DNA of 64,000 nucleotides. Source: a phage. A program made the translations under genes and the position numbers. The notes below the pieces were generated by a model that worked only from the letters and a program-made list of their open reading frames with translations, ran no database searches and was not told the DNA's origin. Shown piece after piece: positions 6,407 to 54,803 of this stretch (the stretch's first letter is position 1; every line of letters begins with the position of its first letter). Where the stretch lies: the sequence record PX915678.1; one strand, 5' to 3'.

Positions 6407-8386
6407 ATGACTTTATTATCTCCGGGCATTGAGCTCAAAGAAACTACGGTTCAAAGCACCGTGGTTAATAACTCTACTGGTACAGCAGCTTTGGCCGGTA
6501 AATTCCAGTGGGGTCCTGCTTTTCAAATTAAACAGGTTACAAATGAAGTAGATTTAGTTAATACTTTTGGTCAACCTACAGCTGAAACTGCTGACTATTT
6601 TATGTCTGCAATGAATTTCTTACAATACGGAAATGATTTGCGAGTTGTGCGTGCTGTCGATAGAGATACCGCTAAAAACTCATCTCCGATTGCCGGTAAT
6701 ATTGAATACACTATTTCTACCCCAGGTAGTAACTACGCGGTTGGAGATAAAATCACGGTTAAGTATGTTTCAGAAGATGTTGAAACAGAATGTAAAGTTA
6801 CCGAAGTAGATGCTGATGGAAAAATTAAGAAAATTAATATTCCTACCGCAAAAATTATCGCTAAAGCGAAAGAAGTAGGCGAATATCCAGCATTAGGTTC
6901 TAACTGGACCGCGGAAATTTCTTCGTCTTCCTCTGGTTTAGCTGCAGTAATAACTCTTGGAAAAATTATTACTGATTCTGGTATTTTATTAGCTGAAATT
7001 GAAAATGCTGAAGCTGCTATGACAGCTGTTGACTTTCAAGCAAATCTCGAAAAATATGGAATTCCAGGAGTAGTAGCTCTTTATCCAGGCGAGTTGGGCG
7101 ATAAAATCGAAATTGAAATCGTATCTAAAGCTGACTACGCAAAAGGTGCTTCTGCATTACTTCCAATTTATCCAGGTGGCGGAACACGCGCATCTACTGC
7201 CAAAGCAGTGTTTGGATATGGACCACAAACTGATTCACAATACGCTATTATAGTTCGTCGCAATGATGCTATTGTTCAAAGCGTTGTTCTTTCAACGAAG
7301 CGTGGTGAAAAAGATATTTACGATAGTAACATCTATATTGATGACTTTTTCGCAAAAGGTGGTTCAGAATATATTTTCGCAACTGCACAAAACTGGCCAG
7401 AAGGCTTCTCTGGAATTTTAACTCTGTCTGGCGGATTATCATCAAATGCTGAAGTAACAGCAGGAGATTTGATGGAAGCTTGGGACTTCTTTGCTGACCG
7501 TGAATCTGTTGATGTTCAGTTGTTTATTGCGGGTTCTTGTGCCGGTGAATCTTTAGAAACAGCATCTACTGTCCAAAAACACGTCGTTTCAATTGGGGAT
7601 GCTCGCCAAGATTGCTTAGTACTGTGCTCGCCACCGCGTGAAACTGTAGTTGGAATTCCTGTAACTCGTGCTGTTGATAACTTAGTCAATTGGAGAACTG
7701 CAGCAGGTTCATACACTGATAATAACTTTAATATCAGTTCAACCTACGCAGCAATTGATGGTAACTACAAGTATCAGTATGACAAATATAATGATGTAAA
7801 TCGTTGGGTTCCATTAGCAGCTGATATTGCTGGTTTATGCGCGAGAACCGATAACGTTTCTCAGACTTGGATGTCTCCAGCTGGTTATAATCGCGGCCAG
7901 ATTTTGAACGTTATTAAACTTGCTATTGAAACTCGCCAGGCGCAGCGCGATCGTTTATACCAAGAAGCTATCAACCCAGTAACTGGTACAGGTGGTGATG
8001 GTTACGTATTGTATGGTGATAAAACAGCTACTTCTGTTCCTTCTCCATTTGATCGTATTAACGTTCGTCGTCTGTTTAATATGTTGAAAACGAATATCGG
8101 ACGTAGTTCAAAATATCGTTTGTTCGAATTAAACAACGCGTTTACTCGTTCATCGTTCCGCACAGAAACTTCCCAGTACTTGCAGGGAATTAAAGCTCTC
8201 GGTGGAATTTATGAATATCGTGTAGTTTGCGATACAACAAATAACACTCCGTCAGTAATTGATAGAAATGAGTTTGTTGCAACATTCTACATCCAACCGG
8301 CTAGAAGCATTAACTACATTACCTTAAACTTCGTAGCAACTGCTACTGGTGCAGATTTCGATGAGTTAACTGGTCTTGCAGGTTAA
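6407..8386 (+). CDS. 18: contractile tail sheath protein
   Basis: 659-aa ORF (T4 gp18 is 659 aa); TATAAATA late promoter about 30 nt upstream. Confidence 0.95.
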   Translation: MTLLSPGIELKETTVQSTVVNNSTGTAALAGKFQWGPAFQIKQVTNEVDLVNTFGQPTAETADYFMSAMNFLQYGNDLRVVRAVDRDTAKNSSPIAGNIEYTISTPGSNYAVGDKITVKYVSEDVETECKVTEVDADGKIKKINIPTAKIIAKAKEVGEYPALGSNWTAEISSSSSGLAAVITLGKIITDSGILLAEIENAEAAMTAVDFQANLEKYGIPGVVALYPGELGDKIEIEIVSKADYAKGASALLPIYPGGGTRASTAKAVFGYGPQTDSQYAIIVRRNDAIVQSVVLSTKRGEKDIYDSNIYIDDFFAKGGSEYIFATAQNWPEGFSGILTLSGGLSSNAEVTAGDLMEAWDFFADRESVDVQLFIAGSCAGESLETASTVQKHVVSIGDARQDCLVLCSPPRETVVGIPVTRAVDNLVNWRTAAGSYTDNNFNISSTYAAIDGNYKYQYDKYNDVNRWVPLAADIAGLCARTDNVSQTWMSPAGYNRGQILNVIKLAIETRQAQRDRLYQEAINPVTGTGGDGYVLYGDKTATSVPSPFDRINVRRLFNMLKTNIGRSSKYRLFELNNAFTRSSFRTETSQYLQGIKALGGIYEYRVVCDTTNNTPSVIDRNEFVATFYIQPARSINYITLNFVATATGADFDELTGLAG

Positions 8387-15777: not shown

Positions 15778-16782
15778 TTAACTTACCAATTCAATCCAAG
15801 CCGGACGAAGTACATCTTGTACCATTTTAACTAATTCCTTCTTAATCAAAGAAGGATTATCCGCTTGAGTTAGAGTAATACCTTCACGAGAAGTTTCTTC
15901 CAAAATATCTTGAACAGTTAGTCCCATCACCTTTCCAAAATCTTTTGGACCAATTTCGCCAATTTTAGAAATAACGTTATTTACTCGGTTCAGTGTAACG
16001 TAACAAGCTAAAATTCCCGCCAATTTGTTATCAGCTTCTGACAGTTCAACTTTAGCTTTAATAGGCTTATCAGACTTTTTCTTTTCGCTAAATTTAGAGT
16101 TCTTGCATTTGATGGCTACACGATTGCCGTTATGCAGCCAAGAAGGATAACAAGGTTTCAATACATATCCTTCAGCGGTAAATACTTCGCCTTTTGCTTC
16201 GGCATTCCAAACGCATTTATTTGCATCAACTAATCCAGCGTGGTCTACCGTAAAATTATAATCTTGGACGACAGAATCTAAATCATTTGGCAATTTAATA
16301 AGTTCTTCAAATTTACCGCGACCTAAAAGTGGAGCCATTTTAAATTTAAATGTATTACAGAATGATTCCATCATATAATCATCGACATAAGTCACATCAC
16401 CACTTTCTGTAGTAACAATAATGTCAAATACATAAAAATCTTTATCGCCATAATCGACATTCTTCTGAATGCCAGGTCCAGCGAATTCGCCAAAAACTTG
16501 ATAAGATACAACTGCTGAAGTTTCCATAATATCTTGTACTGCTTTAATGGAATCAGAGTAATTCTTCAAAATAATTTCATACCCAAAGAAATCTTCAGCA
16601 GGAAGAATAGGACCAGTGCGTTTAGCACAAGTTACTTTATCACGCTCAATAATTAATGAGAAATTTGTGCCATGAATCTTTTCACGAGCTACCCATTCGC
16701 CACCAGTCAATCCTAAACTATAAAGTTTTTCAATGAATTTAGAATTGTAATGATTTTCAAGACTGCTATACTTTTTAAACAT
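15778..16782 (-). CDS. rnlB: RNA ligase 2
   Basis: 334-aa ORF, sequence recalled as T4 Rnl2 ([16 protein letters not shown]...[10 protein letters not shown] with the ligase lysine motif KxHGxN). Confidence 0.93.
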
Positions 16783-17360: not shown

Positions 17361-18779
17361 TTATGGATAGGTATAGATGATACCAGTTTCTAAAGCAGTT
17401 TTATGAATGATGTATCCATTACGTGATTCTTGAACATCAACTTCTGGATAGTCTTTCATCATCTTCTGAAGAGTGTAGCGGTGCAGGTAGTATTTACTAT
17501 CTGGATCTTCAGTTTTCCAATCTTTACCTTCTTCGGTCATTTTTTGGATTTCATCCATAACCCACCAACCGCACCAGATATAAGCTGAAGTACGATGTGG
17601 AAGAGGATGAACATAAGGCAATTCACCTTCTGGTTCCGGAGCAACTTTATCAGTTACCTGAACTTGACCAGTCGCTTTAACTGTTTTACTATCATAGTCA
17701 GTTGCCGTAACGACAGCAGTAACTTCAATAGTTTGACTTCCAATAGATGAGGTGTCAACGGTGTATACGTTAGTTGACCCTTCCACAGGAGAAGAATCTT
17801 TCTTCCATGAATAAGTAATTTGTGCTGCTTCAGGTGCTCCAGTAACATTAGCCGTAAATGTAGCCGAAGCATCTTGCTGAACGTTAATAGAAGGAGGAGT
17901 CAGTGTAACCTGTGGATTCATTGTCTTCTTATTAACTGTCAATGATACTTCATTAGAAGTAACTTCCTTTTCATTGTAATTTTCTGCCGTTACTTGGGCT
18001 ACGCATTTAATTCTTTTTACTCCACTTGTAGTTGGAGTATAGCTAAATGTAGCGGAAGTTGCTTCACTAATTTGTGAATCATCTACATACCACTGATACG
18101 TAGCAGACGCTCCATCAGGTTGAGAAACCAAGGCAGCAGTAAATTGAACTGGGGTTCCAATTACTCCAGCTGAAGGACTATCAGGAGTTACTGCCAAGGT
18201 AGTTGTCTGCGTCTTTTTATTAACTGTTAATGATACTTCATTAGAAGTAACGCTTAGTGCATCATAATCTGCCGCAGTTACTTGAGCTACACACTTGATT
18301 TTTTTAACTCCGCTTGTGTCAGGAGTGTAATTGAATGTAGCGTCAGTTGCTTCGCCAACAGGAGAACCGTCAACGTACCATTGATACGTAGCAGATGCAC
18401 TTGGTGGCTGTGAAGCTAAGGCAGCGGTAAATTCAATTGGAGTTCCAATCACTCCAGCATCAGGGCTACCAGGAGTTACAGCTAAGGTAGTTGTTTGTGT
18501 CTTATTTTGAACTGTGATAGTTGTAGTAACTGTAGCTGTTTCAGGTTCAGCTTCTGGAACTGTATTTGTTGCAACCACCTTAATAGTCTTTTGACCGGCA
18601 GGTCCTTTTAATACATAATCAAAAGTTGCTTCAGCTCCATCCTGTGGAACATTATCTACACTCCAAGCATAGGTAATAGTTCCACCTTCAGTTTGACCAC
18701 TGGGTGCAGCAGTAAACTGCTTGGTTTCATCAATAACTCCTGTTGGTGTTTTAGGAGTTATATCAACTGTAAAAGCCAT
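17361..18779 (-). CDS. hoc: highly immunogenic outer capsid protein Hoc, 4 Ig-like domains
   Basis: 472-aa ORF with the conserved Hoc C-terminal capsid-binding region (PEPEGELPYVHPLPHR...GIIYTYP); contains a 96-aa internal tandem duplication. Confidence 0.92.
   Translation of the reverse strand: MAFTVDITPKTPTGVIDETKQFTAAPSGQTEGGTITYAWSVDNVPQDGAEATFDYVLKGPAGQKTIKVVATNTVPEAEPETATVTTTITVQNKTQTTTLAVTPGSPDAGVIGTPIEFTAALASQPPSASATYQWYVDGSPVGEATDATFNYTPDTSGVKKIKCVAQVTAADYDALSVTSNEVSLTVNKKTQTTTLAVTPDSPSAGVIGTPVQFTAALVSQPDGASATYQWYVDDSQISEATSATFSYTPTTSGVKRIKCVAQVTAENYNEKEVTSNEVSLTVNKKTMNPQVTLTPPSINVQQDASATFTANVTGAPEAAQITYSWKKDSSPVEGSTNVYTVDTSSIGSQTIEVTAVVTATDYDSKTVKATGQVQVTDKVAPEPEGELPYVHPLPHRTSAYIWCGWWVMDEIQKMTEEGKDWKTEDPDSKYYLHRYTLQKMMKDYPEVDVQESRNGYIIHKTALETGIIYTYP
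17928..18503. repeat. tandem direct repeat of about 288 bp (2 copies) inside hoc
   Basis: Encodes two consecutive 96-aa Ig-like units, KTQTTTLAVTP(G/D)SP(D/S)AGVIGTP...SNEVSLTVNK, with high identity. Confidence 0.85.
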
Positions 18780-29557: not shown

Positions 29558-29560
29558 CAA

Positions 29561-29590
29561 TGGGGACCGAAAGGTCCCCATATTTTTATT
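29561..29590 (+). terminator. intrinsic terminator after gene 54
   Basis: TGGGGACC-GAAA-GGTCCCCA hairpin followed by TATTTTTATTT. Confidence 0.75.
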
Positions 29591-29876
29591 TACGGAATGA
29601 AATGAAAGCAGCAACTGAAGCAACTAAACTGTCTTCAATATAAACTTCAATTTTTACCGGAGCTTCTGACTCAAATTTACCTGTTACTACACCTTGGAAA
29701 ATGCTTTCAGTCTGTTCTGGCTTTGAAAAATTTTCAGAAGGAAAAATTCCGAACTTTTTATCTGTTCCAAAAATTTTGATAAATTCATCATAAACTGCTT
29801 CATTAAAAGCGTTATCAGCAGGAATAACGCCTTCAACTACAAGTTCTTGACCTAAAAAGCGTAAAGAAGATTTCAT
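29586..29876 (-). CDS. hypothetical protein (alt-downstream ORF)
   Basis: 96-aa ORF immediately downstream of an early-promoter cassette. Confidence 0.6.
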   Translation of the reverse strand: MKSSLRFLGQELVVEGVIPADNAFNEAVYDEFIKIFGTDKKFGIFPSENFSKPEQTESIFQGVVTGKFESEAPVKIEVYIEDSLVASVAAFISFRK

Positions 29877-29907
29877 TTTGTGTTCCTCATGTTATGTCAG
29901 TAAGATT

Positions 29908-29937
29908 ACTATAACACAACACGAGGGACTTGTAAAC
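29908..29937 (-). promoter_or_regulatory. early sigma70-type promoter, repeat copy 1
   Basis: Minus strand GTTTACA - 17 nt with TGt - TATAGT; the -35 overlaps the stop of the alt paralogue. Confidence 0.65.
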
Positions 29938-31994
29938 TACATCTTGAACTTTTTAGACATTCCGTTGATGTTAACCAAAGAAGCCAAGATTTGAGAAACT
30001 TCGTTTTCCTCTTCTTTTGATTCTTCTACAAGGAATTGATTAAATCCAGCCATTGGACGAACTTCACCAGTTTCCATTAGATGATCGCCATCATATACCG
30101 ATTCTTCTAATTGTTCAGAAGGAGGAACGATTGTGCCTTCGATTAGATACTTGTTATAAGCAGTTTCTTTCATCATGTACGTGCTTACTTTATTAATCTT
30201 CAACAAAATTCCACGCGGTAGAATAACTTCAGCTTCTGATGGAAATCCTGATAAATGACCTGGAACGATAACTTTAATTCGCTCAGCTCCTTTTATTACC
30301 ATACCTACGCTAGTTTCAGCATCTTCATTCGCATAAGCAGAGTGACTACCCATATGCATTAAATCTTCAGCATCAACTGAACCTTCTCCTTCGCCAGAAA
30401 ATACTGCACCGGAATCATCTAGAGCCATATAGTTTTTACCATGCTCACCGAAGATATTTGGTTTAAGTGATGTGGATACGAAGTTCTTGAAATAGAACAT
30501 TTTGTTTTCAATATTATGACGTAAAGTTTTAAAAGTAACTTCTTGTCCACGATAAAGCGTAGTTCCTGGAGGAAGAACTGATCCTTTGGCGAATGCAGAA
30601 TCCATCGTCTCGATGTGTTTAATAGCTCGTTCCATGTATTCTTCACGGGTAGAATCTGGTTTACCCAAGAGGAACGAGTTCATTTCAACATATGAATCTG
30701 CACAATAATCTTCTATTACATCAGACTCAGCCTGAGTTAATCCTTTTGGAGTTACTTCGGTGCTTGCGTATTCATATGCCTGAGCAGCAGATTCATTAAT
30801 TAATTTATAAATGCCATTCATGACAAATTGAATAATAGCTACCTTTTCGTCTGGCGTGGCTTTAGAACCTTTAACTAAATCATTGATAATTTTTTTAATA
30901 ACATCAAAGCTATTAGAAATATTAATGTCAGCGAGATCGCTCAAAATTTTATCGGTTTTATAATCAAAAAATTCTTTATTCTTTAAATATTCTTGAGAAC
31001 CTTGATGTGTTATATCGCTCTGCAGTCTGATAGACGGATCACGTAAACGTGCATGGGCCAATGCAATATGATTTCGGAAGCTTTCTAGTTCATAATCGTT
31101 AGATTTAAAACGAGAAGCACTTCTCATACCACCGATAGCTCCTTTGCCGAAGTTTGAACCAATCTGAATAACGCCAGAGTTCATTGGTCCTTCTGCTTTA
31201 TATACCGGAACTTTAGATTCAAACTCTTGATATTTCTTAGCAGCGAAGCTATCGCCCTGGAGTGAAGCATCGACAGTAGAATATTGAGCTTGTGCTGCTA
31301 ATCGACGACTAATTTTAGTTTTCTGAATAACAGCTTGATCCGTGCGCTTATCATTTTCTAAAGCAATAGAAGCAGCAACAGCAACAGCTTTAGGAACAGC
31401 ATTACCTGTTTTGACATCTACATAAACATCACCAACCTTTGATTCAACTTTTGTGAATAACTCAGTTGAAATAGGAGGTACACCTGGAATGTCTTCTAAA
31501 TTGGCATTTTTACGGTAAACCATAATATATGCATACTTTTTATCGTAATCCCAGATTTCCTTTAAAAGAACATATCGACCTGCTCCTTTAGTACGTACTA
31601 AACGGTCAGCAATAACTTGCATTTGACGAGCAGCTCCATTTGTTTTACTTTTTAGTACGCGGAATAGGCATGCGTCAATTTTATACTGTTTCATTGTTTG
31701 AAGAGCAGTATCAAAAACCGCATTAATGACACCAATTGGATTTCCACCCAAGTTTTTAAGTTTAACTAATGATAGTTTCTCATTAACACCTATCATTACG
31801 ATATGCATCATTTTATCGCCTGGCTTAACGTTTTTATTTGTATCACCGCCAGAGGTGTATGTACAAAATCTAAATCCAGGAAGCACACTTTCTTCGCCGG
31901 CTTGAATAGCAAAAATTTGAGGTATTTTATGCTTAGGATTTAAGTTAACAACCGGCGCCGAAGCGCCGTCAAATAATTCTGTAATAAGTTCCAT
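29937..31994 (-). CDS. Alt-like ADP-ribosyltransferase, diverged tandem paralogue
   Basis: 685-aa ORF; N-terminus MELITELFDGASAPVVNLNPKHKIPQIF parallels the upstream alt; retains R/STS/ExE motifs (TLYRGQ...FVSTSLKPNIF...SEAEVILPRG). Confidence 0.88.
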   Translation of the reverse strand: MELITELFDGASAPVVNLNPKHKIPQIFAIQAGEESVLPGFRFCTYTSGGDTNKNVKPGDKMMHIVMIGVNEKLSLVKLKNLGGNPIGVINAVFDTALQTMKQYKIDACLFRVLKSKTNGAARQMQVIADRLVRTKGAGRYVLLKEIWDYDKKYAYIMVYRKNANLEDIPGVPPISTELFTKVESKVGDVYVDVKTGNAVPKAVAVAASIALENDKRTDQAVIQKTKISRRLAAQAQYSTVDASLQGDSFAAKKYQEFESKVPVYKAEGPMNSGVIQIGSNFGKGAIGGMRSASRFKSNDYELESFRNHIALAHARLRDPSIRLQSDITHQGSQEYLKNKEFFDYKTDKILSDLADINISNSFDVIKKIINDLVKGSKATPDEKVAIIQFVMNGIYKLINESAAQAYEYASTEVTPKGLTQAESDVIEDYCADSYVEMNSFLLGKPDSTREEYMERAIKHIETMDSAFAKGSVLPPGTTLYRGQEVTFKTLRHNIENKMFYFKNFVSTSLKPNIFGEHGKNYMALDDSGAVFSGEGEGSVDAEDLMHMGSHSAYANEDAETSVGMVIKGAERIKVIVPGHLSGFPSEAEVILPRGILLKINKVSTYMMKETAYNKYLIEGTIVPPSEQLEESVYDGDHLMETGEVRPMAGFNQFLVEESKEEENEVSQILASLVNINGMSKKFKM

Positions 31995-31997
31995 GAT

Positions 31998-34055
31998 TTA
32001 TCCTTGAACGAACTTGTAAGGCATGTTTGTAATATCTATGCAAGACGCAATAATTCCAAGAGATGATTCTACTTTTTGTTTAACATTTGATGAAACAAAT
32101 GATGCAAAGTCAACTCTGTCTTCTATTTCAATATCACCTGTCATTGCAACTACTTCACCAGTTTCCATTAGACGATCACCGTCATAAATTACTGATTCGG
32201 TGAGTTCTTCCGTAGTCATAACTTCAGCTTGAATAAGCTTGTTGTTAGTTTTAGCTGTTCCATCATTGTAAGATGCATCGGTTATTTTATTAACTTTGAC
32301 CATTAATCCACGTGGTAAAATGACTTCCATTTCATTTGAAGGCGCTAAACTTCCACCTGGTAAAACAACGTTGACTTTATCAGCCCCAGTAATAACCCAT
32401 CCAATTCCAACTAAATTATCGCTAGAATTAACAAGTCCTTCATCGTTTTTATCGATAGAAATGTTTAGACGCTTTTCGTCTGGTAAAACACCCACAGCTG
32501 AATCAGTCATCCAAGTACCAAAAATGTTTGGATATAATGATGTTGATACAAAATTTCTAAAATAAAAAACTCGATTTTTTACCAATGCTTCATATATTGA
32601 AGGTAACATTCGCTGTGAACGATATAAAGTAATACCTTTTGGCAGTCGATCACCATTTTTAAAGGCTGAATCTAAATTATCGATGGCTTGTTCTATTTCT
32701 GGTGCTGTTAAAATACTTGTACGTTCATCTGGATTATATAATCCCAAAAGAGCATTATTCATGTCTACATATCCTGAACCTACGTATTCACGAATTCCAC
32801 GTTTTTGTGCCGGTGTGTATTTAGACGGATCTTTATTTTCGACTATAGAATGCAATGACCATCCAACGGTAAGAGCATATCCACGTAATTCTCTTCGAAT
32901 AATCTTTGTTTTTATTGCATTCCAAGAATTTTGTACTAACTCATTCGCAGCATCTTGATTTAAATGCGAATGCTTGTTAATATTTCTTTCTAACCAAGCA
33001 CCTTTATATTTTTCTAAAGTATCATCGACTATAGAAGCAATAGTTTCTAAAGTTTTTATTGAAGTAATAGATTCTTTTCGTAATCTTTCTAAAGCTTTAT
33101 TTTTTATTTCTGCATTAACATCAGATTCTTTATCTTCAGGAATTATAGAAGCTTCTCTGAATGCCATTCCAGCTGTAACACTATTAAGAGCATTCTCTAA
33201 TGCAAATCCTGAAGTAGAAATAACAGTTAATTCATTAGCATCAGAAATTAAAGGCGCGTCAGCGGGTTTATTTAATTCTGCTGCTGAAGCCTCAAATTTT
33301 TGAAACATTGGTGTTTCAAATCTGGAAGATTCTAACGATTGACTTTGTGCAATTGCTCTACGGGAAATTTTAACTTTAACGATTACAGCTTGGTCAGAAC
33401 GTTTATCGTTTTCTTGTGCAATAGATGCTGCAATTGCCTCATTTTTAGTTACTTGAGCTCCGGTATCTTTATTGATATAAACATCACCGACTTTCGATTC
33501 AACTTTAGTAAAGAGCTCGGTACTAATTTCCGGAACTCCTGGAATGTCTTCTAGTGATACATTTTTGCGATGTATAAGAATATATGCATACTTTTTATCG
33601 TAATCCCAGAGTTCCTTAAGAAGGACGTATCTGCCACCTGAACGACTACGGATAAGTCTATCAGCAATAAGTTGAATTTGACGAGCTTGACCAGCAGTTT
33701 TAGACTTAAGAATACGGAGCATGCAGGCATCAATTTTATACTGACGCATCGTCTGCATCGCAACAGTAAAAACTGAATTGATGTAATTAATTGGGCTTGG
33801 ACCGAGACCTTTTAATTTAGCAATTGAACCTTTGGCAGTTAATGTAAAAGGAACAATATGCATCATTTTATCGCCCATCTTTAAATCGCGATTAGTATCA
33901 CCTCCAGATGTATAGGTACATAAACGAAAGCCTGGCTGTTCAATTGCGTCATCAACATGAACTGAAAAAATTTGTGGTATTTTCTTCTTTGGATTTAAGT
34001 TTGTAATCGGAAGAGTAGTATCTTCGTCAAATAATTCTGTAATGAGTTCCATCAT
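31998..34055 (-). CDS. alt: ADP-ribosyltransferase Alt (packaged internal head protein)
   Basis: 685-aa ORF recalled as very close to T4 Alt; ART motifs YRSQ...FVSTSLYPNIF...EMEVILPRG; minus-strand TATAAATA upstream. True start may be the second Met (34052). Confidence 0.93.
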   Translation of the reverse strand: MMELITELFDEDTTLPITNLNPKKKIPQIFSVHVDDAIEQPGFRLCTYTSGGDTNRDLKMGDKMMHIVPFTLTAKGSIAKLKGLGPSPINYINSVFTVAMQTMRQYKIDACMLRILKSKTAGQARQIQLIADRLIRSRSGGRYVLLKELWDYDKKYAYILIHRKNVSLEDIPGVPEISTELFTKVESKVGDVYINKDTGAQVTKNEAIAASIAQENDKRSDQAVIVKVKISRRAIAQSQSLESSRFETPMFQKFEASAAELNKPADAPLISDANELTVISTSGFALENALNSVTAGMAFREASIIPEDKESDVNAEIKNKALERLRKESITSIKTLETIASIVDDTLEKYKGAWLERNINKHSHLNQDAANELVQNSWNAIKTKIIRRELRGYALTVGWSLHSIVENKDPSKYTPAQKRGIREYVGSGYVDMNNALLGLYNPDERTSILTAPEIEQAIDNLDSAFKNGDRLPKGITLYRSQRMLPSIYEALVKNRVFYFRNFVSTSLYPNIFGTWMTDSAVGVLPDEKRLNISIDKNDEGLVNSSDNLVGIGWVITGADKVNVVLPGGSLAPSNEMEVILPRGLMVKVNKITDASYNDGTAKTNNKLIQAEVMTTEELTESVIYDGDRLMETGEVVAMTGDIEIEDRVDFASFVSSNVKQKVESSLGIIASCIDITNMPYKFVQG

Positions 34056-34075: not shown

Positions 34076-34083
34076 TATTTATA
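34076..34083 (-). promoter_or_regulatory. late promoter (TATAAATA, minus strand) for alt
   Basis: Plus-strand TATTTATA about 21 nt upstream of the alt ATG. Confidence 0.65.
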
Positions 34084-38022: not shown

Positions 38023-38388
38023 TTAAATATCAAATTCGTTAAGAACTACATCAAAGATTGCTTCAAGATGCTCAGGTTTAGCTCTGTTACTCAAAATATG
38101 ACGAATCCAAGTTTTAACCAGAAGCTTACGATTAACGCCATTCCAGCAAGGATGAGTCCCTAAATCGCGTTGACGAAAATCATCATCCAAAGCGATTTTG
38201 AAGTTGGAACCTTCCATTGTGATTGAAACTGTGATGCCATTTTCAAATCGCATATAAACGTAGTTAGGAGTCATATACTGTTCAATTTCGCATACTGATC
38301 CATTTTGATGTTTCCAAAGGCAAATAGTATCAATAGAACCTGCAATACCATTAGAAACATATTTACGTTCAAAGTTGATGTAGTTCAT
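38023..38388 (-). CDS. hypothetical protein
   Basis: Track ORF starts at TTG (38400); ATG at 38388 preceded by GGAG gives 121 aa. Confidence 0.55.
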   Translation of the reverse strand: MNYINFERKYVSNGIAGSIDTICLWKHQNGSVCEIEQYMTPNYVYMRFENGITVSITMEGSNFKIALDDDFRQRDLGTHPCWNGVNRKLLVKTWIRHILSNRAKPEHLEAIFDVVLNEFDI

Positions 38389-38455
38389 TTTATTCTCCAA
38401 GATGTTTAATTGCGGTACAGGTATATAATATCATATCCTGTACCAAAGTAAACAA

Positions 38456-38788
38456 TTATTTTACTACTTTCCAGTGCTGCATGTCAAGTTTACCAACTTT
38501 TTTCATCTTCTCAATTAAGCGTTCAGCACGTTGGCGAGCTGTAACATAATACCATTCACCCAATTCATTTTGTTCAATTTTTCCAACGATTACTGTATTC
38601 AATTCATAAATCCAACCAGTAAAGAAATTATGAACTTGAATTGTAAAGGTGAAATCTGTTCCCATACCTTCTGTTGTTTCTACTTCAATAATATCACCTT
38701 CAACTGCCATTAAGAACCACATAGTTTCATCATATTTACCATTGAAGCATTTAGTTTTAACTGTAGCGTTCAGATTAATCGTTTTCAT
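38456..38788 (-). CDS. hypothetical protein
   Basis: 110-aa ORF; early-promoter-like GTTTACA-N17-TGnTAGTAT upstream. Confidence 0.55.
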   Translation of the reverse strand: MKTINLNATVKTKCFNGKYDETMWFLMAVEGDIIEVETTEGMGTDFTFTIQVHNFFTGWIYELNTVIVGKIEQNELGEWYYVTARQRAERLIEKMKKVGKLDMQHWKVVK

Positions 38789-38815
38789 TTTATTCTCCTT
38801 TGTTTGTGTAAGATA

Positions 38816-38844
38816 ATACTATCACAAAGGAACCATACTGTAAA
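38816..38844 (-). promoter_or_regulatory. early promoter upstream of the 110-aa ORF
   Basis: Minus strand GTTTACA - 17 nt - TGaTAGTAT. Confidence 0.45.
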
Positions 38845-38865
38845 CAACTTTGTGCAATCTTTGGA

Positions 38866-41953: not shown

Positions 41954-42474
41954 GTTGATCCTAGCTCCTTACTTTCAACGTTTTTAACTAATTTGACAGA
42001 AACTAATTCGGCATCTTGGGTAATCATTACCGGGCCTTCTTTATACTCTTCAAGATATTCTAGAGCTTTCTTTTTAGCTTCTTCCTTCGTATCAGTTTGA
42101 GCATAGATATAAAACATACAACCAGTAATACCTACTACTTTCCACTTAATTTCTTTATCAGTTTTAATTTCAAATTTACTGACAGAATCATCTTTTTGAA
42201 CTTCTTCGAAAAAAGAATATTCTAACATATAAGCAATTGAAAATAACGGGCTAACTTTATAGGATTCGCCCATTACATCAACAGCTTTATACCAGCGGTC
42301 ATCAATTTCGCGTTTAATGCTAATAACATTTTTCGCAGGATCTATTTTTACTTTAAATGAATTTTCCCCAATAAACTGAGCAATTCGTTTATTGGCCCCA
42401 CAAGTTTCATTAAAAATATCTTTATATCCAGCTTTAAAGCGATAAACCTTATCTTCTTCAAACCATTCGCTCAT
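41947..42474 (-). CDS. hypothetical protein (cd.3 position)
   Basis: 175-aa ORF with an early-type promoter (TTTACT-N17-TGaTATTAT) upstream. Confidence 0.65.
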   Translation of the reverse strand: MSEWFEEDKVYRFKAGYKDIFNETCGANKRIAQFIGENSFKVKIDPAKNVISIKREIDDRWYKAVDVMGESYKVSPLFSIAYMLEYSFFEEVQKDDSVSKFEIKTDKEIKWKVVGITGCMFYIYAQTDTKEEAKKKALEYLEEYKEGPVMITQDAELVSVKLVKNVESKELGSTC

Positions 42475-42504
42475 TTCAATTTCCTCATTTGTTTTGGTAG
42501 AGCT

Positions 42505-42533
42505 ATAATATCACAACTCTACCATAAAGTAAA
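42505..42533 (-). promoter_or_regulatory. early promoter upstream of the cd.3-position ORF
   Basis: Minus strand TTTACT - 17 nt - TGaTATTAT. Confidence 0.5.
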
Positions 42534-42536
42534 CTA

Positions 42537-44954: not shown

Positions 44955-45304
44955 TTAGAAAGGTCCTGGATGTCTTCTGCGAACTTGTTGAAGGAGTTGT
45001 TGATTTGTTTTTCAACCAATCCTGGCTTATGAGCCACCACATCCGCCTTCTTTGCGTCTTTGCGCAGTTTTTCATTTTCACGCTCAATAGCAGCAATTGC
45101 CTCACGATTTTTATTATTCATCGCATCAATATAATTATACTGAATTCGCAAATTATTTAATGCTAAAGCGTTTTCATTGGCCGTTTTTGTAATTTCTACA
45201 ACAGACGTTTCTAATCTTTCAATTTTATTTTTTAAAATTAAAGAAGTTCCGCCCAATGCAATTACAATTAATAGCAAGCCTGTTGTCGTATTACTTAATT
45301 GCAT
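44951..45304 (-). CDS. inner-membrane spanin (i-spanin)
   Basis: 117 aa; N-terminal transmembrane helix (GLLLIVIALGGTSLIL) followed by a charged coiled-coil region. Confidence 0.75.
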   Translation of the reverse strand: MQLSNTTTGLLLIVIALGGTSLILKNKIERLETSVVEITKTANENALALNNLRIQYNYIDAMNNKNREAIAAIERENEKLRKDAKKADVVAHKPGLVEKQINNSFNKFAEDIQDLSK

Positions 45305-45801
45305 AAAGTTTTAATAACCTCTATAATATCGTCTTGAGAAAGACCGTTAATTAAAATATGATGTTCAGCAGGAGATTTAGAAATTTTAAAGCATGCCTCA
45401 ACATCTTCTGCCATATCCGATGCGCTACGATTTGGATTACTAATTCCAAGACGATGTTTTCCCGTTAAAGGATTAACGATGATATAGCATTTACAGTTGT
45501 TGATATGAACATTAGGTTGAGTCTGATTAATGAACACATCACAATCATATTTCGCAAGCTGATTTTCTAAAAAGACTTTCATCTCCTCAACCGCATCAGG
45601 AAGCATATCACGGGCTTGCTCAAGACGACGATTTCGATATTCTTTAATGGTCGTTTTCCGCTTGACTTGCTTAGCTAAATCTTTCTTAAGATCGGTGATA
45701 TATCCAACTCGACGATTTCCTTTAAATACAGAAATCCCATCTGTAGTATCACCGTATGCTTCAACGACCATCTCAGTAGTAATAAGCTGTAAATCCATCA
45801 T
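45295..45801 (-). CDS. alc: Alc transcription terminator / host transcription shutoff protein
   Basis: 168-aa ORF in the T4 alc position between the spanins and rnlA (T4 Alc is 167 aa); early promoter upstream. Confidence 0.85.
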   Translation of the reverse strand: MMDLQLITTEMVVEAYGDTTDGISVFKGNRRVGYITDLKKDLAKQVKRKTTIKEYRNRRLEQARDMLPDAVEEMKVFLENQLAKYDCDVFINQTQPNVHINNCKCYIIVNPLTGKHRLGISNPNRSASDMAEDVEACFKISKSPAEHHILINGLSQDDIIEVIKTLCN

Positions 45802-45829
45802 AAAGTCCTCATGTTATGTCAGTAAGACT

Positions 45830-45859
45830 ACTGTAACACAACACGAGGGACTTGTAAAC
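45830..45859 (-). promoter_or_regulatory. early sigma70-type promoter, repeat copy 2 (upstream of alc)
   Basis: Minus strand GTTTACA - 17 nt - TACAGT; a roughly 55-bp block nearly identical to 29883-29937. Confidence 0.65.
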
Positions 45860-45862
45860 AGC

Positions 45863-47450
<1,588 letters not shown>

Positions 47451-53773: not shown

Positions 53774-54016
53774 TCAAACAGTCTTTTTCACAATTTTCCA
53801 ATCAGCTTTAAACTGTTCAACATCAGAATGGTAAATCCAGAATCCTGCGCTTTCTCCATCCTCATAAAGAGGGCATCCATCACATTCATCTTCCCATCCC
53901 ATATCACGCAAAAGATGTTCAGCTTTTTCAACAAGTTCAGAATCTTTACCGATGATATTAAAATACCATTTACCTCTAACTTCTGAATCTTTAATACTCT
54001 GACGTTGTAATCTCAT
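53774..54016 (-). CDS. hypothetical protein (frd.3 position)
   Basis: 80-aa ORF with an early-type promoter upstream. Confidence 0.6.
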   Translation of the reverse strand: MRLQRQSIKDSEVRGKWYFNIIGKDSELVEKAEHLLRDMGWEDECDGCPLYEDGESAGFWIYHSDVEQFKADWKIVKKTV

Positions 54017-54041
54017 TTTATTCTCCTTAGTTGATAGGGTA

Positions 54042-54070
54042 ATAGTATCACACTACTACCCTACTGTAAA
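54042..54070 (-). promoter_or_regulatory. early promoter upstream of the frd.3-position ORF
   Basis: Minus strand GTTTACA - 17 nt - TGaTACTAT. Confidence 0.5.
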
Positions 54071-54436
54071 CTACTTTTTGAAAGTTTTTCGCAAAAGTTC
54101 AATGATTTCGTCGACGTTATTTTCGTCTACAATGCAGTGAATTTTTGTTACGCCAGAAACCTTGTCTTCGATTTCATCTTCTTCAGAAGTCGGTTCTTTA
54201 TATTCACGGAAACAATGAAATTCATCTTCGCAAACGTTAAAGTAAAAATGCTTTCCATTTGCGCATTCAATGTGTTTTATTACTCTAAATCCATCGGCAA
54301 AGAAAGCTTCTTTAACTTCAAACCATCCGCCATTTTCTTGAATAATTTTAACTATTGATGAATTAGAACGTGGGCGATAATTAATAAATGTATTAATAAG
54401 TCTTGGAACAAGCTCATACTTTTTGCCGATATACAT
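54071..54436 (-). CDS. hypothetical protein
   Basis: 121-aa ORF between gene 32 and the frd.x ORFs. Confidence 0.55.
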   Translation of the reverse strand: MYIGKKYELVPRLINTFINYRPRSNSSIVKIIQENGGWFEVKEAFFADGFRVIKHIECANGKHFYFNVCEDEFHCFREYKEPTSEEDEIEDKVSGVTKIHCIVDENNVDEIIELLRKTFKK

Positions 54437-54479: not shown

Positions 54480-54710
54480 TTATTGTTCAATTAATCCCAT
54501 GTAAAATTCTGTGTCTTCAGAATCCATACCATCACAATATTCATTAGCCATAAAGCGGGTGAGGTCTTCAAGAGGACCTTCAATGACAATAGAAAAATTG
54601 CAATAATTGGGATCATCGTGAATACTTGTGATACTAAGCTCAGGATAACGATTACGAATAATTTCTTCAATATATTCAAAATCAACGATGTCAATATCAA
54701 CTTTAGCCAT
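54480..54710 (-). CDS. hypothetical acidic protein
   Basis: 76 aa from the internal ATG ([11 protein letters not shown]...) with AAAGAGGAAA upstream; the track ORF starts 7 codons earlier. Confidence 0.55.
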
Positions 54711-54753
54711 ATTATTTTCCTCTTTAATCATCAGCAGTATTGCCGATAGTTGT

Positions 54754-54782
54754 ATAGTACCACAGTCCTTGTGGTATGTAAA
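54754..54782 (-). promoter_or_regulatory. early promoter upstream of the 76-aa acidic ORF
   Basis: Minus strand GTTTACA - 17 nt - TGgTACTAT. Confidence 0.5.
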
Positions 54783-54803
54783 CTGTTTTGTGAAAAAATT
54801 TTT

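Follow-up and report, generated by a model that had tools for sequence, protein, structure and literature searches.

Of the elements described in T4-type phages, the promoter-early-stem-loop (PeSL) cassettes come closest to the two sites considered here. A PeSL comprises an upstream stop codon, sigma-70-like -35 and -10 boxes, a stem-loop overlapping the -10, a Shine-Dalgarno (SD) sequence and an ATG (Arbiol et al., 2010, PMC2839356; Comeau et al., 2014, PMC4122927), the PST/T4 promoter consensus being TTTACW-N17-TAYWAT (PMC2839356; PMC4122927). One stem-loop of RB49 lowers the expression of a downstream reporter, and the authors read the stems as terminators or attenuators (PMC2839356). A second precedent is found in the T4 genes e, soc, 49 and I-TevI, whose SD and/or AUG are buried in long transcripts, and where an internal promoter gives a shorter, translated RNA without the 5' arm (PMC3014915). 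Finally, repeats of an early promoter with its leader are known from the internal-protein (IP) locus of T-even phages (Repoila et al., 1994, as cited in PMC2839356 and PMC4122927).

Here we describe two early promoters in a 64,000-nt stretch of phage DNA (sequence record PX915678.1; "the window" denotes this entire stretch) that are built on one 54-nt repeat, copy A upstream of alt.-3 and copy B upstream of alc. A sequence-only reading of the window had likened the two sites to PeSLs, and the anatomy bears this out, from the stop codon through the sigma-70-like -35 and -10, the stem-loop and the SD to the ATG. As in PeSLs, the promoter boxes lie about 17 nt apart, a stable predicted stem-loop encloses the -10, the element is intergenic between a stop and an SD with its start codon, and the repeated copies are able to serve as homology patches. 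However, PeSLs flank small ORFans, whereas A and B are 16 kb apart with essential genes in between, and most of about 500 genomes have the same genes beside them, with no link to insertions, deletions or replacements. The other half of the comparison, a shuffling of flanking genes at the cassette edges, was thus not seen; here it is the interior of the cassette that has seemingly been swapped rather than the genes beside it. The A/B stem also differs in that it lacks a terminator-like U-tract and has the SD as its 3' arm, while the PeSL paper does not discuss translation.

By prediction, A and B share with the e, soc, 49 and I-TevI gates an SD that is paired in upstream transcripts and a promoter that lies inside the structure. 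The internal promoter of those gates is late (TATAAATA) and delays translation, whereas that of A and B is of the early sigma-70 type, so that the predicted effect would be reversed, with translation confined to the immediate-early RNA. The IP-locus repeats, as the PeSL papers describe them, are likewise conserved T4 early-promoter elements that occur at several loci and have been proposed to support exchange of the intervening DNA. They flank highly variable internal-protein genes, whereas the genes around A and B are conserved.

Two copies of one early promoter cassette

Copies A and B (Table 1) are 54 nt each and agree at 52 of the 54 positions. The near-identical block of about 55 bp that the sequence-only reading had placed at the two sites is therefore real, with two differing positions in place of the three or four it had counted: a T/C difference in the -10 hexamer (TATAGT in A, TACAGT in B) and an A/G difference 4 bases further on. 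Identity ends abruptly, as the 54 nt adjoining the repeat match at only 21 positions upstream and 18 downstream. When the whole window was searched for the pattern with up to 3 mismatches, copies A and B alone were returned, and 100 shuffles yielded none. For the 27 other pairings of the 8 clear T4-type early promoters on the minus strand, the mean is 24.6 and the maximum 37 shared positions out of 54. What A and B have in common is thus more than generic hexamers: the spacer and the leader are identical through to the SD. No Rfam family matches anywhere in the window, and the spacer sequence had no match in a full-text literature search.

In order, each copy comprises GTTTACA (-35), a 17-nt spacer, TGt-TATAGT (TACAGT in B), about 20 nt of leader and the SD GAGGA. 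This is the minus-strand GTTTACA-N17-TA(T/C)AGT arrangement that had been proposed, with a TG at the extended -10, and both -10 hexamers agree with the PST/T4 consensus in 5 of 6 bases. From the spacing conserved in the other early promoters of the window, transcription is predicted to start near 29901 in A and near 45823 in B. The earlier statement that both copies begin at the preceding stop codon is roughly right: repeat A opens with the G of the alt.-2 TAG, and the TAA of rnlA lies 3 nt upstream of repeat B. At the other end, the ATG of alt.-3 follows repeat A by 7 nt, and ATGs of alc lie 4 and 7 nt past repeat B, the second of them (at 45798) being the start in the T4 annotation. The tract upstream of the -35 is AT-rich in B (gaattttttgaaaaattataaaaaattt) and less so in A, and is within coding sequence in both. 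As a side observation, the TACAGT -10 of the alc copy (45830-45835, minus strand) reads TATAGT in T4 and adds a C-G pair to the apical helix of the predicted fold; several further Tequatrovirus genomes have this T-to-C change too, at either of the two loci.

Table 1. Positions in the window of the two cassettes, their predicted parts and neighbouring features
Feature	Position	Strand	Remarks
Copy A cassette	29884..29937	-	Between the stop of alt.-2 (full-length alt paralogue) and alt.-3; covariance-model score 27.3 bits
Copy A promoter	29908..29936	-	-35 TTTACA 29936-29931, 17-nt spacer, TG and -10 TATAGT 29913-29908; consensus scan
Copy A, predicted 5' arm CCTCGTGTTGTGTT	29913..29926	-	In promoter spacer; in read-through RNA only
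Copy A, predicted 3' arm GACATAACATGAGG	29885..29898	-	Holds SD GAGG at 29888-29885
alt.-3 (96 aa)	29586..29876	-	Served by copy A; T4 annotation; early RNA and early protein in T4
alt.-2, full-length second Alt paralogue (685 aa)	29937..31994	-	Stop overlaps base 1 of copy A; source of read-through RNA
T4 late-promoter consensus TATAAATA	34076..34083	-	21 nt upstream of alt ATG
Bidirectional terminator-like hairpin	29560..29581	.	Between convergent alt.-3 and gene 54
Copy B cassette	45806..45859	-	Between the stop of rnlA and alc; covariance-model score 23.4 bits
Copy B promoter	45830..45858	-	-35 TTTACA 45858-45853, 17-nt spacer, TG and -10 TACAGT 45835-45830; consensus scan
Copy B, predicted 5' arm	45835..45848	-	In promoter spacer
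Copy B, predicted 3' arm	45807..45820	-	Holds SD GAGG at 45810-45807
alc (inhibitor of host transcription)	45295..45801	-	Served by copy B; T4 annotation; early RNA and early protein in T4
rnlA (RNA ligase 1 / gp63) ORF	45863..47023	-	Ends 3 nt before copy B; source of read-through RNA

The window belongs to Tequatrovirus, the 2 kb around both sites being 98-99% identical to Shigella phage pSs-1, KNP1 and hundreds of T4-like phages. When the 54-mer was used as a BLAST query, 999 places in 500 phage records were hit, all at least 92% identical, with two per complete genome, T4 and T2 included; the two copies of T4 itself differ at 1 position. Since essentially all of the approximately 500 records carry two copies, the repeat is fixed in the genus and not peculiar to the genome of the window. 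An exact-word scan of IMG/VR for the spacer retrieved 7 stretches, all from Tequatrovirus, too few for population analysis. For the A region, 402 of 501 records have the same flanking genes, and for the B region 497 of 503; no gene shuffling at the cassette edges was found in the approximately 500 Tequatrovirus records. Nor does a comparison of the junction with T4, as the sequence-only reading had proposed, place a change at the repeat boundary: the one clear difference beside copy A, in alt.-2, ends about 10 nt upstream of the cassette. The truncated alt.-2 of T4 corresponds to a 1,699-bp deletion between two CTAAAAAGT repeats (9-bp direct repeats at 31655 and 29956 of the window, minus strand; the T4 junction lies in locus L002, 5566-5951). 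In the window itself, two Alt ADP-ribosyltransferase paralogues, each full-length and 685 aa long, stand in tandem (29937-31994 and 31998-34055, minus strand), and the small T4 ORFs alt.-1 and alt.-2 are a remnant of the second paralogue.

Neither copy contains the late-promoter consensus TATAAATA. One such promoter precedes alt, and a scan of the minus strand from there (34076-34083) to 29581 found no terminator-like site, so late alt transcripts should run through alt and alt.-2 into copy A and alt.-3. The hairpin at 29560-29581, a perfect 9-bp GC-rich stem with T-runs on both strands, is likely a bidirectional terminator that forms the 3' end of alt.-3 transcripts.

A predicted hairpin between promoter spacer and Shine-Dalgarno sequence

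Folding adds a point that the earlier reading did not contain: as modelled, the repeated unit is a single hairpin that pairs the promoter spacer with the SD, which would explain why identity runs on through the leader as far as the SD. In the predicted fold, CCTCGTGTTGTGTT of the spacer pairs with GACATAACATGAGG of the leader and SD, and an apical AGUA/UACU helix on top brings the stem to about 19 bp. All 4 SD bases are paired with the promoter-side arm, and the loop holds the -10 box together with the predicted +1, which lies 3' of the 5' arm. The read-through context of 81 nt folds at -23.0 kcal/mol in A (z -3.8) and -27.5 kcal/mol in B (z -3.9), with z-scores of -4.9 and -5.5, respectively, for the element alone. 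The 38-nt RNA that begins just past the -10 reaches only -1.6 (A) and -5.0 kcal/mol (B), with z about 0 in both. The predicted energy for opening the region from SD to AUG is 13.5 (A) and 17.5 kcal/mol (B) in read-through RNA versus 3.2 and 4.4 kcal/mol in RNA from the internal promoter. Own-promoter alt.-3 RNA shows weak local pairing of the SD with the coding start and an unpaired probability of 0.02, yet 3.2 kcal/mol suffices to open it. As for known T4 regulators of mRNA, RegB was dropped as a candidate because the SD is GAGGA and no GGAG is present, and no similarity to a RegA operator was evident on direct reading, both judged against the motifs quoted in PMC3014915. A short out-of-frame mini-ORF, spotted by eye, starts at the ATG within CATGAGGA and has no SD before it.

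The regions upstream of alc and alt.-3 were sampled from RB69, VR7 and AS6 (GenBank) and from 27 plus 19 IMG/VR loci. Upstream of alc, a predicted spacer-to-SD hairpin, in which the spacer bases next to the -35 are complementary to the SD region, is present in most of the non-Tequatrovirus elements tested, with differing arm sequences (CTCCATTTGG/CCAAATGGAG, CCTCATTTTGTTG/CAACAAAATGAGG, CCTCGTTTGTT/AACAAACGAGG and CCTCATCAG/CTGATGAGG) and z-scores of -2.9 to -7.0. Thus at least 6 other T4-like lineages keep the alc architecture with different, compensating arms, and of the 19 tabulated elements, 5 of them from Tequatrovirus, 18 have the SD paired with the promoter-side arm. RNAalifold predicted no pairs on a plain MAFFT alignment of the alc cassettes. 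The arms are shifted by 1-3 nt between lineages, and a covariance model and per-sequence folds anchored on the -35 were used instead. The model, built from 6 alc-type elements, detects both copies of the window (scores in Table 1). In its alignment of 24 distinct elements, which is fitted to the model structure and hence biased in its favour, 96% of the cells are canonical pairs, and changes on both sides are seen in 9 of the 15 pairs; the 96% was reached by none of 500 column shuffles (mean 77%), and slid partners gave 35-50%. Within Tequatrovirus, one genome combines C15T with G50A, a full compensatory change from C-G to U-A of which others hold the U.G intermediate, and G16A turns a G.U into an A-U pair. 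This tolerance of wobbles, together with a 3' arm consistently provided by the SD, points to a function at the level of RNA.

The architecture is nonetheless common rather than universal, given three exceptions: an SD-pairing hairpin upstream of alc is absent from RB69-type (Mosigvirus) phages and from one other lineage (L029), and in L032 the alc hairpin stops short of the SD. Two further observations were made in these genomes. In VR7-type phages (L004, Gaprivervirus, 16511-16744; IMG/VR loci L023, L024 and L038), rnlA and alc are separated by an additional 77-aa ORF whose annotation notes a similarity to Alc, and an early-promoter-like element (GTGTACA...) precedes that ORF and not alc directly. 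In Enterobacter phage AS6 (L005, Karamvirus), the early promoter of another gene, in the gene-30 region (7402-7473, minus strand), has a spacer, CTCCGTTGTAT, that is complementary to the SD region, ATACAACGGAG, and scores 25.4 bits with the covariance model.

A proposed translational gate and its alternatives

Alc has been described as an immediate-early product (PMC2988021). In T4 omics data, alt.-3 and alc are early both in RNA and in protein, and of the genes upstream, alt is middle in RNA and late in protein, alt.-1/-2 are middle in RNA, and rnlA is early in RNA and late in protein (PMC9697503 supplement). Along with the consensus match, these data are the basis for reading the two elements as early promoters. 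The omics classes also fit a gating of translation but fall short of proof. A literature search found no T4 data set of transcription starts that covers the two sites.

In our preferred scenario, each copy is a full early-expression cassette in which a strong early promoter of the sigma-70 type is joined to a 5' leader of about 25 nt and to the SD of the downstream gene. Read-through RNA, coming from alt/alt.-2 into alt.-3 or from rnlA into alc, would have both arms, fold and bury the SD. RNA from the internal early promoter would be without the 5' arm and keep the SD accessible. In this way alt.-3 and alc would be translated mainly from their own immediate-early transcripts, and be shielded from translation on middle and late read-through RNA. 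The logic would be that of the e, soc, 49 and I-TevI gates, with an early instead of a late promoter in the hairpin. Taken as a whole, from the early promoter within an SD-burying hairpin and the translational gating to an ancestral alc cassette that was copied to alt.-3 (see below), this model seems to us reasonably probable. If gating is true, the cassettes represent an early-gene counterpart of the classic late-gene translational gates of T4, and PeSL stems so far treated as terminators gain a functional reading as SD occluders. It would also account for the early-protein behaviour of alt.-3 and alc directly downstream of genes with late-accumulating products. A modest practical consequence would be that T4 engineers who move or delete these intergenic regions alter the translation of the downstream gene along with its transcription.

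The stem-loop may instead terminate or attenuate transcription of the upstream gene, insulating alt.-3 and alc from upstream transcription rather than upstream-derived translation. Indeed, one PeSL stem-loop cut a downstream lacZ reporter about as much as rrnB T1 did (Arbiol et al., PMC2839356), the stems of A and B are long and stable, and the temporal class of the RNA differs across both cassettes in T4. However, no U-tract follows either stem (A GAGGAACACAAAAUG; B GAGGACUUUAUGAUG), neither site was flagged by the terminator scan, and termination alone leaves unexplained that the 3' arm is the SD in 18 of 19 elements. We consider this explanation unlikely, though deserving of attention.

Alternatively, freeing the SD on read-through RNA might require that the 5' arm be melted by a ribosome that completes alt.-2 or rnlA, and translation of the downstream gene would be tied to that of the upstream one instead of being turned off. 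The 5' arm begins 8-14 nt past the upstream stop codon, and the usual ribosome footprint would cover outer stem pairs near that stop, placing them within reach of a terminating ribosome. Such a ribosome would, however, open only the outer 3-5 pairs of a stem of about 19 bp. A distance of 0-5 nt separates the stop from the -35 in A and B and, VR7-type loci excepted, in the alc cassettes compared from other lineages; this tight spacing would suit translational coupling, but it may merely reflect genome compaction. Coupling of this kind strikes us as improbable.

That the hairpin is incidental, the strong promoter having been duplicated and kept for its strength or surviving as the neutral remnant of a recent duplication, or that it is a DNA-level site for protein binding or recombination, is in our judgement quite improbable. 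Across genera, the spacer varies freely while staying complementary to the SD region, G.U-type wobbles are tolerated and resolved to A-U, which points to RNA and not to duplex DNA, and the spacers of the other early promoters of the window are unrelated. These features speak against a simple promoter duplication even though T4 early promoters hold conserved information beyond the hexamers (PMC2988021) and the A-B distances (mean 2.2-2.5 nt) resemble the orthologous ones (A-A 3.2, B-B 1.8), a pattern that a duplication at the base of the genus would produce.

The stem of about 19 bp is also long and stable enough to recall an RNA processing or stability element. It could act in read-through RNA as an RNase III-type site, for which the processing sites of phage T7 are a general analogue, or as a 3'-end stabiliser of the upstream message. 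We regard this as very improbable, since no Rfam family matches, the constant involvement of the SD is left unexplained, and a review of RNA decay in T4 mentions no processing at these sites (PMC3014915).

Origin of the alt.-3 copy and related promoters in the window

Among the lineages compared, the alc-type hairpin is found at alt.-3 in Tequatrovirus only. The regions upstream of alt.-3 in Mosigvirus, Gaprivervirus, Karamvirus and the lineage L045-L053, which we take to be JS98-like, contain a 4-6-bp hairpin that lies wholly within the spacer (e.g. CACA-AGGA-TGTG). These elements have z-scores of about 0 to -1.2 and a read-through opening energy of 2.8-5.7 kcal/mol, with no SD occlusion. Because the alc-type hairpin is restricted to Tequatrovirus at this site, parsimony suggests that the alc version is probably ancestral and was copied over an older alt.-3 promoter in the ancestor of the genus. 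Where the repeat begins and ends, the outgroups have short stretches shared by both promoter types, GTTTACAAG on the 5' side and ACATGAGGA on the 3' side, and copying could have occurred by recombination within these stretches, already present in both promoters. Past the repeat, copy A retains an alt.-3-type leader (ACACAAAATG; compare AAACAAAATG in VR7). It appears that what moved was the cassette itself, an alc-type promoter-hairpin taking the place of the older alt.-3 promoter, and not the neighbouring genes.

Perhaps the two copies have also exchanged sequence since. In the 9 genomes compared, no position separates all A from all B copies: G32A is found at A in the window and in one UViG and at B in PinkRuby and TB004, T27C at B in 4 genomes and at A in 2, and G16A at both loci. 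The A-B differences within genomes (mean 2.2) are not significantly smaller than those between genomes (2.5; permutation P = 0.25, 9 genomes), so that concerted evolution is suggested by the shared polymorphisms alone; gene conversion between A and B is possible.

More broadly, we put forward a plausible but tentative proposal. T-even phages would possess a subclass of early promoters in which the SD, as the 3' arm of a hairpin, confines translation to the promoter's own immediate-early RNA, the mirror image of the late gate of e and soc. Such a gate would be transplantable as a unit, and the alc cassette would have replaced an ungated alt.-3 promoter in the Tequatrovirus ancestor, rewiring alt.-3 expression, with copies that may still exchange sequence today. 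SD-occluding early promoters may, judging from predicted folds, be a recurrent subclass. If the transfer from alc to alt.-3 is true, it is a clean case of regulatory rewiring in which short shared boxes delimit the part of a promoter cassette that is swapped, its interior. The T4 genome record has contained the repeat sequence for a long time; what may be new is the early gate that occludes the SD, along with the transfer of the cassette.

PeSL-like stems are carried by 7 of the 8 early promoters tested in the window. At 38785-38845 and 42470-42534 (minus strand), early promoters GTTTACAG... and GTTTACTT... have hairpins predicted to pair bases of the promoter region with the SD (z -1.9 and -4.1), and the former element scores 24.3 bits with the alc-cassette covariance model. 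Three more early promoters, at about 38385-38452, 54013-54071 and 54707-54783 (minus strand), have strong stems (z -3.3 to -5.1) that enclose or precede the -10 and do not touch the SD. The promoter at 54782 has a spacer hairpin, ACCACA-AGGAC-TGTGGT, of the same type as that of alt.-3 in L045-type (probably JS98-like) phages.

Elsewhere in the window, a 472-aa ORF (17361-18779, minus strand) consists of repeated units of about 96 aa and includes a 288-nt tandem duplication (17923-18210 and 18211-18498) with 76% identity. Its map position suggests that this ORF may be Hoc, presumably with one more Ig-like domain than the Hoc of T4, which is 376 aa long.
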